In this document: positions 61,080 to 64,000 of the stretch, piece by piece
Position numbering within the stretch: the first letter of the stretch is position 1
Layout of the letters: each line of letters starts with the position of its first letter
Source: a virus
Taxonomy: Duplodnaviria > Heunggongvirae > Uroviricota > Caudoviricetes
Virus record (IMG/VR): IMGVR_UViG_3300036985_002287
Location: 30,613 to 94,612 of that record
Direction: 5' to 3' (one strand)
DNA: 64,000 nt
Notes under the pieces: generated by a model
The model's database searches: none
Told to the model about the DNA's origin: nothing
What the model saw: only the letters and a program-made list of their open reading frames with translations
Made by a program: the position numbers and the translations under genes

Positions 61080-63296
61080 TTAATTTAATATTTCTTCTAA
61101 GATAGGAGATATAACGTCAATACTCAATGCATCTCCTACAATGTCATAATCGACGTTTGCTCTACCGCCATTTCTTAATTTTCCGAATAAGATTTCTTTA
61201 GACAGTGGCTTTTTAACTTTCTCTTCAAACAACCGTTCAAATGGTCGCGCACCCATCTTAGGATCATATCCATTCTTAGCTAACCAGTCACGTGCTTGTT
61301 GAGTAACATTTATGCTAATATTCTTAGGAGAAAGCATTACGTCAAGCTTCTCTACCTCGGCGTTAACAATTAAGTTCATGCCAGACATAGTTAATTTATT
61401 AAATGTCACTATACCATCTAATCTATTTCTAAATTCCGGAGTAAAGAAGCGTTTAACTTCTGCTTCTACTGCATTACTATTGTCCTGATTGCCAAATCCG
61501 ATTTTTAATTTTTCAGTTTCGGCGGCACCCAGATTAGCCGACATAATAATTATCACATTTGAAAAATCAATTGTCTTACCTTTAGACGAAGTAAGCCGGC
61601 CGGCATCCATAACTTGTAATAATACACTAAGAACGTCCGGATTAGCCTTCTCAATTTCATCTAACAGTAATACACAGTTAGGATGTGTATCAATCGTCTG
61701 GATTAGTTGTCCCTCACCCATCTTACCTTCGCCGTGTCCTACATACCCGGGAGGCGCACCAATAAATTTAGATACAGTATGCTTTTCCATATACTCGGAC
61801 ATATCAAATCTAGCAAAATGTACACCCAATGTTTCGGCAAGTTTACTAGCCGTATAAGTCTTACCAGTTCCTGTAGGGCCAGTAAACAAGAAACTACCGA
61901 TGGGCTTAGATGGATTTCGTAATCCTGCCTTAGACATAAAAATAGCTTCGACTAATTTATCAATTGCTTCATCTTGTTCATATACCTTGTCCTTCATACG
62001 CGGAGCAAGATTCTCGAGTGAAGTATTCTCTTTCATATCAATCATATCAACAGGCATATGTGCAATCTTTGCCGCCTGCTGCACAATAGTATCGATAGTA
62101 ACGACTGTCTGATCCATCAGTTTAGTTATCGCGCCAGCTGAATCCATAATATCGATTGCTTTGTCAGGGAAGAACTTCGACTTCAGATATCGGTCAGCTA
62201 AATCCACGCACATATCTGTGGCACCTTCCTCGAAAGTAACACCATGGAATTTTTCGTATTGATAAGCAATACCTTTAAGAATTAATTTAGTCTCTATTGC
62301 GGACGGTTGTTCAATATCATATTTTTGGAAGCGACGAAGCAATGCTTTGTCCTTCTCGAAGTGTTGATGGAACTCGTCGTATGTGGTCGCACCTACACAA
62401 GTTAATTGTCCTTTGGCAAGCATAGGTTTCAACAAATTGCCTGCATCCATTTGACCACCACCTGCGGCGCCCGCACCTAAGATCATATGAATTTCATCAA
62501 TGAACATAATGCAGTTGCCCATTTTCTTAACTTGCTCTAAAACACCTTTAAGACGTTCTTCAAAGTCTCCACGGAATTTTGTGCCAGCAATCAGTGCGCC
62601 AACATCTAAACTATATACTACTTTGTTCTGTAATGCTTTAGGCACTTCTTTATTAACAATTTTTAATGCAAGTCCTTCAGCAAGTGCTGTCTTTCCAACA
62701 CCGGGTTCGCCCACGTAAACTACGTTATTCTTTCTGCGTCTAGCAAGAATTTCGATAGTATCCATAACTTCTTTTTCTCTACCGATTACAGGATCGATAG
62801 ATCCGTCAGTAGCTTCCTTATTCAGATTACGTGCATATTGATCTAAGAAAGTCTCATTAGGTCCTTGCTTTTCTTCCGACTTACGCAGTTGTCCCATAAT
62901 CTTTTCTCTGGTAACACCGTGTTTACCTAAGTAATAGAATGCATGACTAGTTTCTTCACTAAGGATACTCAGTAGAATACCTTCGTTAGTCAATTCTCTG
63001 CGACCCGAAAATATTACTTGAGTTAATGCACGTTGAAACGTGCGATTTAATACTGATGTACGCTTTGCCGGCACATCTTTGAGTGCATCAGGTTTCTTTA
63101 GTGCAGGATCACCCAAAAATTGGACAGTTTCGACCTTAATCTTAGCCGGTTGTCCGCCTACTGCAAGTATAAGTTCGTTAACTTCTTTCTCATGCAACAG
63201 AGATAATAGCATATGTTCTAAGGTTACATATTCGTGATTATTGTCATTAGCGAGAGTCACTGCTCTCTCGATCATCTTTTCTACTTTTTTAGTCAT
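61080..63296 (-). CDS. ClpA/ClpB-family double-AAA+ chaperone (ClpA-like length)
   Basis: Clp_N repeat; [15 protein letters not shown] and [15 protein letters not shown]alker A motifs; 738 aa, no long M-domain. Confidence 0.85.
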
Positions 63297-63303
63297 GTTT
63301 ACC

Positions 63304-64000
63304 TTAAATATTTATAGATTCTCTGTGATTCAAAGACTTCATAATGTCCTTCTCTGCGTCACTTAAATTTTTAGGAATACTGATATTGATCCTAACCAAG
63401 ATATCGCCCTGCCTATCTATCTCGGGATTGTTCATACCTTTCCCACCTAATTTAACTATTTGCCCGGGCTGAATACCTGCCGGTATTGTAAACTGTAGTT
63501 TAGCACCGTCTATATGATCGAGTATAGCCTCCACGCCCAGAGCAGCTTCAGCGGAATTAATATTTACATCGACTAATAAGTCGTCGTTCGCCCTCTTAAA
63601 TTTATAATGAGGTTGAACATCTATACGGTATAATTTATTATCAGCGAAGAATCGTGTACCCGACCGTACTCCTCTAGGAATAGTCAAAGTAACTGACGAA
63701 TCGACCCTAATTACCTTACCCGAATAAGCATCTGCTAATGAAATATTTATAACAGTTATTTGTTGGCGGCGCTGAGTGCCACTATAGGGGTCGAATGATG
63801 CATTAGTTCCAAAGAATGATTTAAGCATATCTTCGACATCTCGTTGGTTAGTCGTACCATGTGCCCATTGCTGTGCATTTCCACCAGATAGACCTTCGTG
63901 ACCGTGTATATCGTACTGTCGACGCTTCTCGACATCGGCAAGAATTTCGTATGCCTCTTTAACTTCCTTGAAGTTAGCTTCGGCGGTCAGTTTTTCGGGC
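63304..64000 (-). CDS. DnaJ/CbpA-like J-domain co-chaperone (5' end beyond window)
   Basis: Frame stays open upstream of track ATG: ...[24 protein letters not shown] (end of J domain), then DnaJ C-terminal beta-domains; no Zn-finger CxxCxGxG. Confidence 0.75.
   Translation of the reverse strand, partial: [231 protein letters not shown]

Follow-up and report, generated by a model that had tools for sequence, protein, structure and literature searches.

What use giant phages make of the chaperones and proteases that they themselves encode is a question posed in compact form by two genes lying at one end of a 64,000-nucleotide (nt) stretch of phage DNA (IMG/VR record IMGVR_UViG_3300036985_002287, positions 30,613 to 94,612; the whole stretch is called the window below). 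One encodes a ClpA-type AAA+ unfoldase and the other, immediately upstream of it on the same strand, a J-domain protein (J-protein; DnaJ, an Hsp40). Is this pairing peculiar to one genome, are both proteins intact, and what would a phage gain from making them together? The dnaJ-clpA pair, with or without a peptide deformylase gene (def) between its two members, is a conserved and already annotated module of jumbo phages of the Rak2, Atu_ph07, and PA5oct type, and the window pair is assigned to this module on the strength of its sequence. We consider it probable that the two genes form a co-transcribed proteostasis operon of a jumbo phage related to Rak2, Atu_ph07, and PA5oct, and that this operon is a conserved module of that group. 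What may be new is clade-wide rather than specific to the window, namely the contrast with the bacterial clpS-clpA arrangement, the frequent insertion of a deformylase gene, and an insertion in the unfoldase beside the pore loop of its second AAA+ domain (D2).

The first-pass annotation of this DNA held the pairing to be unusual for a phage, a view that the distribution of the genes contradicts. Adjacent dnaJ and clpA genes are annotated in PA5oct (gp297/gp298) and Atu_ph07 (gp293/gp292), and in Sinorhizobium phage Phosso a peptide deformylase gene stands between them; both Atu_ph07 proteins are listed by Attai et al., who also report ClpA to be conserved in Rak2-like phages (PMC6102473). One ClpA profile was run on IMG/VR and on GTDB genomes, and the gene upstream of clpA was classified in 80 viral and 80 bacterial loci, as follows:
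dnaJ directly upstream of clpA: 34/80 viral, 0/80 bacterial
dnaJ, then peptide deformylase, upstream of clpA: 38/80 viral, 0/80 bacterial
peptide deformylase alone upstream of clpA: 1/80 viral, 0/80 bacterial
clpS upstream of clpA: 3/80 viral (enterobacterial type), 61/80 bacterial
upstream side of clpA cut by the end of the locus: 2/80 viral, 3/80 bacterial
none of these upstream of clpA: 2/80 viral, 16/80 bacterial

The IMG/VR loci with dnaJ upstream of clpA thus number 72 of 80, against 0 of 80 bacterial loci, and the linkage is reciprocal, with 67 of 80 viral loci showing a downstream ClpA in a reverse scan by a J-protein profile and the DnaJ subfamily of the window being linked to clpA in all 36 of its loci. 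Where window ClpA has dnaJ as its upstream operon partner, the typical partner of bacterial clpA is clpS. The HPD motif is present in all 72 complete clpA-linked J-proteins, none of which has a zinc finger. A deformylase gene between dnaJ and clpA was observed in a locus designated L012 (4451-4969) and in 38 IMG/VR loci (for example L026, L031, and L034); all 39 intervening deformylases retain EGCxS and HExDH, their catalytic motifs. In the literature searched, no description of the dnaJ-def-clpA cassette as such was found.

The pairs of PA5oct, Atu_ph07, and Phosso share with that of the window the gene order and strand, the tight spacing, and a common ClpA clade, although the ClpAs themselves are only 43-49% identical to the one encoded here. 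They differ in several details: the J-protein of PA5oct is 229 amino acids (aa) long and that of the window 274 aa, the latter being the better conserved, and the lineage of the window has a homolog of IF1 upstream and no deformylase gene, whereas Phosso has the deformylase between the pair. The clade itself was delimited by a neighbor-joining tree of 158 ClpAs, rooted on ClpC and drawn without bootstrap values, in which all 73 dnaJ-linked ClpAs, that of the window among them, fall inside one 78-member clade with no bacterial sequence inside; the other five members are the ClpA of Asteriusvirus phage G17, those of two truncated loci, and those of two loci without dnaJ. An independent character agrees with this tree and so supports a single phage clade, because the segment that follows the D2 pore-loop motif GYVG has 7 aa in every one of the 80 bacterial ClpAs and more in all 78 members of the phage clade, of which 45 have 8 aa and 33, the window protein among them, have 11 aa. 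Catalytic and pore motifs are kept across the 78 phage ClpAs, a hydrophobic-Gly-Phe motif stands at the ClpP-docking loop in 77 of them, and the residues that contact ClpS are retained as often as in bacteria. As the docking motif has persisted in 77 of 78 sequences despite an overall identity below 50%, selection on ClpP docking is suggested, and the retention of the motifs, the docking loop, and the ClpS residues together argues that these interfaces stayed under selection in phages.

The unfoldase of the window can be read domain by domain, and its parts, all on the minus strand, are as follows (D1 and D2 being the first and second AAA+ domains):
61080-63296, minus strand: clpA orthologue, 738 aa (translation of the open reading frame (ORF), Pfam, alignment to ClpA)
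62892-63296, minus strand: N-domain of ClpA, aa 1-135 (Pfam Clp_N, alignment to 1k6k)
62688-62711, minus strand: D1 Walker A, GEPGVGKT, aa 196-203 (motif reading)
62568-62582, minus strand: D1 pore-1 loop, TKFRG, of the KYR type (motif reading)
62487-62504, minus strand: D1 Walker B, FIDEIH (motif reading)
61857-61880, minus strand: D2 Walker A, GPTGTGKT, aa 473-480 (motif reading)
61704-61748, minus strand: D2 pore-1 loop, GYVG, followed by an 11-aa segment with the phage-clade insertion (motif reading)
61644-61670, minus strand: D2 Walker B (motif reading)
61494-61502, minus strand: IGF tripeptide, aa 599-601, within KIGFG (alignment)

The description of this gene as encoding a 738-aa double-AAA+ Clp protein with a Clp_N domain and two Walker A motifs was borne out by the ORF, by Pfam, and by the motifs, the Pfam domains being Clp_N, AAA, AAA_lid_9, AAA_2 (E 5.8e-57), and ClpB_D2-small. 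Residues 5-736 of E. coli ClpA align with residues 4-718 of the window protein in a single contiguous stretch (E 1e-201, which makes a chance match untenable), with 45% identity over 732 aligned positions, while ClpB, ClpC, and Hsp104 each align to it in two separate stretches; because the alignment is unbroken with ClpA and split with the other three, the phage protein is concluded to have no M-domain. The Clp_N match covers aa 12-62 (E 1e-7), and aa 4-134 match the N-domain structures 1k6k and 1lzw (E 1e-13). Four residues of E. coli ClpA, namely E23, E28, T81, and R86, are reported to contact ClpS (PMC12493166), and at the level of sequence alignment their counterparts E22, E27, T80, and R85 are kept in window ClpA. 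The IGF tripeptide aligns with the ClpP-docking loop of E. coli ClpA (IGL, 617-619), so that the docking loop, left unchecked by the first-pass annotation, is retained as IGF; the RR and FRNRLD arginine fingers and the sensor-2 motif GARP are likewise intact, and with both Walker A/B pairs in place the ATPase sites are not degenerate. The alignment to the Clp family, which had been proposed as a check for an M-domain, found none and placed the protein with ClpA. The identities of ClpB and ClpC were ruled out by the missing M-domain and the IGF loop, and the unfoldase is accordingly classed as a true ClpA orthologue. Window ClpA is thus predicted to keep all that is needed for two-ring ATP hydrolysis, for gripping a polypeptide, for docking to ClpP, and for binding ClpS, and its biochemical identity as ClpA is well supported by these sequence features.

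Its closest known counterpart is E. coli ClpA, the unfoldase of ClpAP with ClpS as adaptor (1ksf, 6w1z), with which it shares the order of N-domain, D1, and D2, the lack of an M-domain, the Walker A and B motifs, the pore loops, the arginine fingers, the sensor-2 GARP, the I-G-[L/F] loop, and the four ClpS contacts. It differs in being encoded by a phage, in a linker between N-domain and D1 that is 16 aa shorter, and in 4 additional aa after GYVG, the resulting 11-aa segment occupying 61704-61736 (minus strand). A looser likeness is that to the ClpB-DnaK-DnaJ disaggregase, which likewise joins an Hsp100 double ring to an Hsp40, an analogy drawn by the authors of the Atu_ph07 study (PMC6102473). 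Unlike ClpB, window ClpA has no M-domain to couple it to DnaK and has a ClpP-docking loop that ClpB lacks; these features place it among the protease partners of the ClpA type and not among the disaggregases of the ClpB type.

The J-protein gene is cut by the end of the window, which holds the following parts:
63304-64000, minus strand, cut at the window end: 3' part of dnaJ, aa 44-274 of 274, a class-B J-protein (translation, Pfam)
63910-63999, minus strand: J-domain helices III-IV, aa 44-73, ending in KRRQYD (translation, AlphaFold2 helices)
63763-63909, minus strand: short linker, aa 74-122, poor in Gly and Phe (sequence, AlphaFold2 model)
63373-63762, minus strand: two beta-sandwich C-terminal domains (CTDs), CTD I at aa 123-181 and CTD II at aa 182-252 (AlphaFold2, Foldseek, Pfam)

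The 174-aa ORF listed as starting at 63828 is a piece of a longer open frame that begins at an internal ATG, an artifact of an ORF lister that requires a start codon; the frame is open from 63304 to the end of the window and reads as the first-pass annotation had claimed beyond the start of the listed ORF. Pfam matches only positions 38-63 of the DnaJ profile in the window, that is, the last 26 positions of the J domain, because the gene is cut there, and it matches DnaJ_C over profile positions 69-152 (E 1.6e-23). The first 43 codons, HPD included, fall just past the window end and were recovered from Logan contig SRR11849220_19431 (L002), which was found by exact-sequence look-up of the ClpA protein, agrees with the window without a mismatch over 12,921 bases, and extends 4,596 bases beyond the window end. 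The complete gene (L002 4469-5293) encodes 274 aa, and the completed J domain, which the annotation had asked to see, reads ASKYHPDK, with HPD at aa 33-35 and YHPDK at aa 32-36.

An AlphaFold2 model of the J-protein, built from 57 homologs with a mean predicted local distance difference test (pLDDT) score of 81, has a four-helix J domain, a linker, two beta-sandwich domains, and a C-terminal helix, with helices at aa 44-64 and 66-78. The linker (about 49 aa) is mostly disordered, with a single helix at aa 96-106, and DMLKSFFG is its only segment to recall how a G/F region ends; aa 123-252 are modeled with a pLDDT of about 90, and CTD I is compact and has no zinc-finger insertion. The complete 274-aa sequence has no CxxCxGxG motif and no cysteine at all, which, with the DnaJ C-terminal domains found by Pfam, upholds the earlier description of the protein as lacking a zinc finger. 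Foldseek places Thermus thermophilus DnaJ (4j80) first and then the class-B proteins DNAJB13, Hdj1, and Sis1, the CTDs of the last two, both class-B Hsp40s, being among the structures matched; the best solved full-length relative is T. thermophilus DnaJ2 (6psi, 4j80; E 9e-26). Compared with E. coli DnaJ, the phage protein has 6 additional aa after HPD and a gap across the entire zinc-finger region. From its sequence, therefore, we class the J-protein as class B (type II), with an HPD-bearing J domain, a linker, two client-binding CTDs, and no zinc finger. A class-A DnaJ was ruled out by the missing zinc finger, and an orthologue of CbpA was rejected as well, CbpA being matched over the J domain only (E 2.8e-12) and the downstream gene being clpA, not cbpM. 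The label "CbpA-like" is consequently true of the architecture only: T. thermophilus DnaJ2 (280 aa) and E. coli CbpA have the same class-B architecture as the window protein, which differs from its class-B relatives by an identity of about 28-30%, the 6-aa insertion after HPD, and the Gly/Phe-poor linker, and it is DnaJ2 that is the closest solved full-length relative.

The layout of the two genes points to one transcript, two of its features being these:
63297-63303, minus strand: 7-nt spacer from the dnaJ stop codon to the clpA ATG (sequence)
61041-61066, minus strand: intrinsic terminator immediately behind the stop codon of clpA, made up of a hairpin and then a T-run (GAAAGCCGCCagtaGGCGGCTTTTTT) (sequence, RNA fold)

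A Shine-Dalgarno-like AAGG overlaps the dnaJ stop codon (TAAGGTAAACATG), and the spacing of dnaJ and clpA in relatives is 7-9 nt. The terminator, which was spotted by inspection and confirmed by folding after an automated terminator scan had missed it, folds at -17.6 kcal/mol (z score -4.7; none of 200 shuffled sequences folds equally well). It is because of the 7-nt gap with its Shine-Dalgarno-like motif and of the strong terminator past clpA that we take the genes to be co-transcribed. Directly upstream of dnaJ lies an IF1 homolog (73 aa, Pfam eIF-1a; L002 4133-4354), about 240-460 bases past window position 64000 in the same genome, and this position is kept in the lineage of the window (L003, L004, L006, L014, L015, and L017-L019). 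The genome of the window itself has a 114-nt spacer ahead of dnaJ; in close relatives the IF1 homolog, dnaJ, and clpA are spaced by 8-12 nt, and since IF1 is only 12 nt from dnaJ there, IF1, DnaJ, and ClpA probably share one transcript. A scan for sigma-70 promoters was uninformative (36 sites against 26.6 expected), and Rfam, run over the window and L002, returned three tRNAs only and no RNA element near the operon.

The assignment to a particular phage group rests on proteins, as no match was returned when the region was compared by megablast with 50,697 phage records, and relatives are seen at the protein level only. The nearest relatives of the window PolB are those of Sinorhizobium phage Phosso, Vibrio phage 2.275.O, Atu_ph07, and Rak2-like coliphages (38-43% identity), and those of window ClpA are PA5oct (49%), then Phosso and Atu_ph07. 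Phage-type genes flank the pair on both sides, the window also holds a MoxR-type ATPase, an ATP-dependent ligase, radical-SAM proteins, a sigma-70 region-4 protein, and Phage_DsbA, and homologs of the J-protein occur with the same neighbors on metagenomic contigs of 300-390 kb. The synteny with PA5oct runs through homologs of PhoH (opposite strand), gp295, gp296, DnaJ, ClpA, and gp299; the gp295 homolog is 54% and the gp299 homolog 39% identical to its PA5oct counterpart, and both of these PA5oct proteins are virion proteins (gp295 by mass spectrometry). In PA5oct the virion flag from electrospray ionization tandem mass spectrometry (ESI-MS/MS) is absent from DnaJ and ClpA and present on their neighbors. 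We therefore regard the source of the window as a jumbo phage related to Rak2, Atu_ph07, and PA5oct, as its predicted proteins indicate, and the phage origin assumed at the outset is sustained by the affinity of PolB, the PA5oct synteny, the MoxR-type ATPase, the ligase, and the tRNAs. A moraphage, in whose lineage ClpA is a core gene (PMC12619734), was considered as a source and set aside, the window PolB and ClpA being closest instead to those of Phosso, Atu_ph07, PA5oct, and Rak2-like phages.

Which partners the two proteins would use depends in part on what else the genome encodes. In PA5oct a set of proteostasis genes lies within about 25 kb upstream of DnaJ-ClpA (L178 19742-38707, corresponding to PA5oct 169.7-188.7 kb) and comprises ClpX (gp255), an annotated "heat shock protein" (gp259), ClpS (gp260), FtsH (gp266), ClpP (gp272, 46% identical to E. 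coli ClpP), and GroES (gp290); the lineage of the window has a GroES homolog at the matching position. The same PA5oct cluster also contains ribosomal protein S21 and an FtsH-interacting protein, and the ClpP and FtsH of PA5oct are flagged by ESI-MS/MS as present in virions. For Atu_ph07, too, genes for ClpP and ClpS have been reported (PMC6102473). In an IMG/VR scan for ClpS, two operon-bearing contigs, of sublineages other than that of the window, were found to have ClpS elsewhere, and a corresponding scan for ClpP yielded no contig in common with the ClpA loci. The ClpP, ClpS, and ClpX sequences of E. coli and PA5oct, used as tblastn and phmmer queries against the window and all flanks, gave no match. 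The earlier suggestion that the pair feeds substrates to host ClpP or DnaK stands in part: docking to ClpP and recruitment of DnaK are reasonable readings because the IGF loop and HPD are kept, but a host partner is not required, given that PA5oct has ClpP, ClpS, and ClpX of its own.

The proteostasis operon that we favor would work as follows. During infection the J-protein would bind non-native phage polypeptides, most likely the large and abundant virion proteins, which are the likely clients because the genes sit among virion-protein genes, and it would pass them to DnaK while stimulating the DnaK ATPase through its HPD motif; this DnaK would be that of the host, since the window encodes none. 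Phage ClpA would form hexamers on ClpP, which would be phage-encoded if the remaining genome has one, as in PA5oct, and otherwise that of the host, and ClpA would unfold misfolded, ssrA-tagged, N-degron (via ClpS), or phage-unwanted proteins for degradation. With both proteins made from one transcript, the phage would hold additional fold-or-degrade capacity under its own control. From the position among virion genes, the proteostasis set of PA5oct, and the views of Attai et al. and Iyer et al., we infer that the physiological role is quality control and support of virion production, and published readings are concordant with such a role (PMC6102473, PMC7824862); the operon may possibly also serve the proteolysis of selected host or phage proteins.

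Several points weigh against this interpretation. Neither the 64-kb window nor the adjoining 4.6 kb past its end contains a gene for ClpP, ClpS, or DnaK, so these partners have to be assumed, and adjacency is a sign of co-expression, not of a common pathway. Phage G17 has ClpA and no dnaJ within 4 kb upstream. The Gly/Phe-poor linker and the compact CTD I suggest that the J-protein may have a specialized task and not that of a general Hsp40, and the handling of substrates could be altered by the phage insertion that adjoins the D2 pore loop. The literature searched was found to contain annotation-level remarks on phage ClpA or on the DnaJ-ClpA pair and no experiments, and a preprint on the omics of PA5oct makes no mention of Clp or DnaJ.

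The alternatives can be weighed largely on the same observations. E. coli ClpA and DnaJ/DnaK both monomerize RepA, and by analogy with the activation of P1 RepA by E. coli ClpA, the phage ClpA could act mainly without ClpP, remodeling or disassembling virion-assembly intermediates or replication complexes, with the J-protein and DnaK as a parallel remodeling route. The operon does lie between genes whose PA5oct homologs encode virion proteins, and Iyer et al. propose phage ClpA and ClpX as translocases or aids to virion assembly (PMC7824862). A docking loop with hydrophobic-Gly-Phe in 77 of 78 phage ClpAs would nevertheless be hard to explain if ClpP were dispensable, PA5oct has its own ClpP and ClpS, and its DnaJ and ClpA, unlike their neighbors, carry no ESI-MS/MS virion flag, so that we judge mainly ClpP-independent work to be unlikely. 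The retained ClpP and ClpS interfaces could also plug into host machinery: ClpA might steer ClpP to host proteins such as defense factors or regulators, or compete with host ClpX and ClpA for ClpP and so protect phage proteins, and the J-protein might reprogram or act as a decoy for functions that depend on DnaK or DnaJ, for example DnaJ-dependent immune sensors. Host proteins are the targets of phage ClpP and ClpS in the proposal of Iyer et al. (PMC7824862), and the moraphage paper, citing bNACHT25, speculates that phage DnaJ counters DnaJ-dependent defense (PMC12619734). Such a takeover of the host is in our estimate quite unlikely, for the operon is deeply conserved, vertically inherited, core-like, and fixed in position, not patchy with fast turnover as counter-defense genes are; no defense-related neighbors were seen, and no specific target can be named.

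The systematic exchange of partners, with clpS-clpA in 61 of 80 bacterial loci (and dnaJ in none) against dnaJ-(def)-clpA in 72 of 80 viral loci, raises a further thought, namely that the J-protein, standing in the operon place of ClpS, is itself an adaptor that delivers substrates to ClpA, with or without DnaK, in a triage from Hsp40 to ClpA(P). The reciprocal linkage in 36 of 36 loci of the subfamily and the 7-9 nt between the genes would accord with it. ClpA, however, lacks the M-domain, which is the known Hsp70-coupling element of ClpB; the ClpS-binding residues are kept and ClpS genes are found elsewhere in related phages, so ClpS does not appear to have been functionally replaced; a deformylase gene separates the pair in 38 of 80 loci; and in G17 ClpA goes without dnaJ within 4 kb. 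Such a pathway would couple an Hsp70 system to a ClpP-dependent Hsp100, for which no precedent is known. We hold direct delivery by the J-protein to be very improbable, and the broader proposal, that the J-protein replaced ClpS as operon partner in a fold-or-degrade triage pathway from Hsp40/Hsp70 to ClpA(P), joined to deformylase in about half of the lineages or to IF1 in that of the window, to be distinctly improbable, the conserved reciprocal linkage in the sequences notwithstanding. Finally, the pair might not belong to a phage at all, and a bacterial host flank or a mis-binned contig with a cellular clpA and a dnaJ paralogue would account for a ClpA that is about 45% identical to proteobacterial ClpAs, much as it is to other phage ClpAs; phage genes on both sides, synteny with the cultured phage PA5oct that includes virion proteins, the place of ClpA in the phage clade with its phage-specific insertion, and the absence of dnaJ upstream of clpA in all 80 bacterial loci refute this, and we give it next to no credence.

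Some other genes of the window and its relatives were noted in passing. Three tRNA genes, Leu(TAA), Met(CAT), and Arg(TCT), lie at 11054-13366 (minus strand), an ATP-dependent DNA ligase at 3935-5332 (minus strand; phrog_114, E 4e-92), and a radical-SAM protein at 8866-10050 (minus strand; phrog_1802). At 23795-26167 (minus strand) a MoxR-type AAA+ ATPase (25073-26167, phrog_1297) adjoins a 400-aa protein (23795-24997, phrog_1314, labeled "HNH endonuclease"), a pair that resembles the MoxR-vWA chaperone pair of group 2.2 jumbo phages (Iyer et al., PMC7824862). In a run of genes for sugar-nucleotide or redox enzymes at 43438-49985 (minus strand), which may represent a sugar or DNA-modification pathway, 43438-44340 matches radical-SAM weakly, 44860-45828 encodes an NAD-dependent epimerase/dehydratase, 48223-49125 a dehydrogenase of the ADH_N type, and 49125-49985 a GFO/IDH/MocA oxidoreductase. 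The 378-aa protein at 57625-58761 (minus strand), whose sole recognizable domain is a sigma-70 region 4 in mid-protein, probably serves the phage as a sigma-like or late-transcription factor; the contig L003, related to the window at 96%, has other genes at this place. ORFs with the NUMOD3 motif, which is found in homing endonucleases, occur at window 57044-57628 (minus strand), between the sigma-like and NifU_N genes, and at L002 2223-2819, between PhoH and the gp295 homolog, with none at these positions in L003, and they may be a recent gain of mobile elements.

For the window alone the result is ordinary, adding a further metagenomic member to an annotated module. For the phage group it means more, as the phage ClpA is, by all indications from its sequence, no decayed copy but a protein whose ATPase, pore, ClpP, and ClpS interfaces have been kept through deep divergence. 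Because this ClpA is intact and stands in a fixed operon with a J-protein, the pair is a good target for experiments in PA5oct and Atu_ph07, and the issue at stake in these is whether giant phages bring along a private quality control for very large virions or a means of reshaping the proteome of their host.

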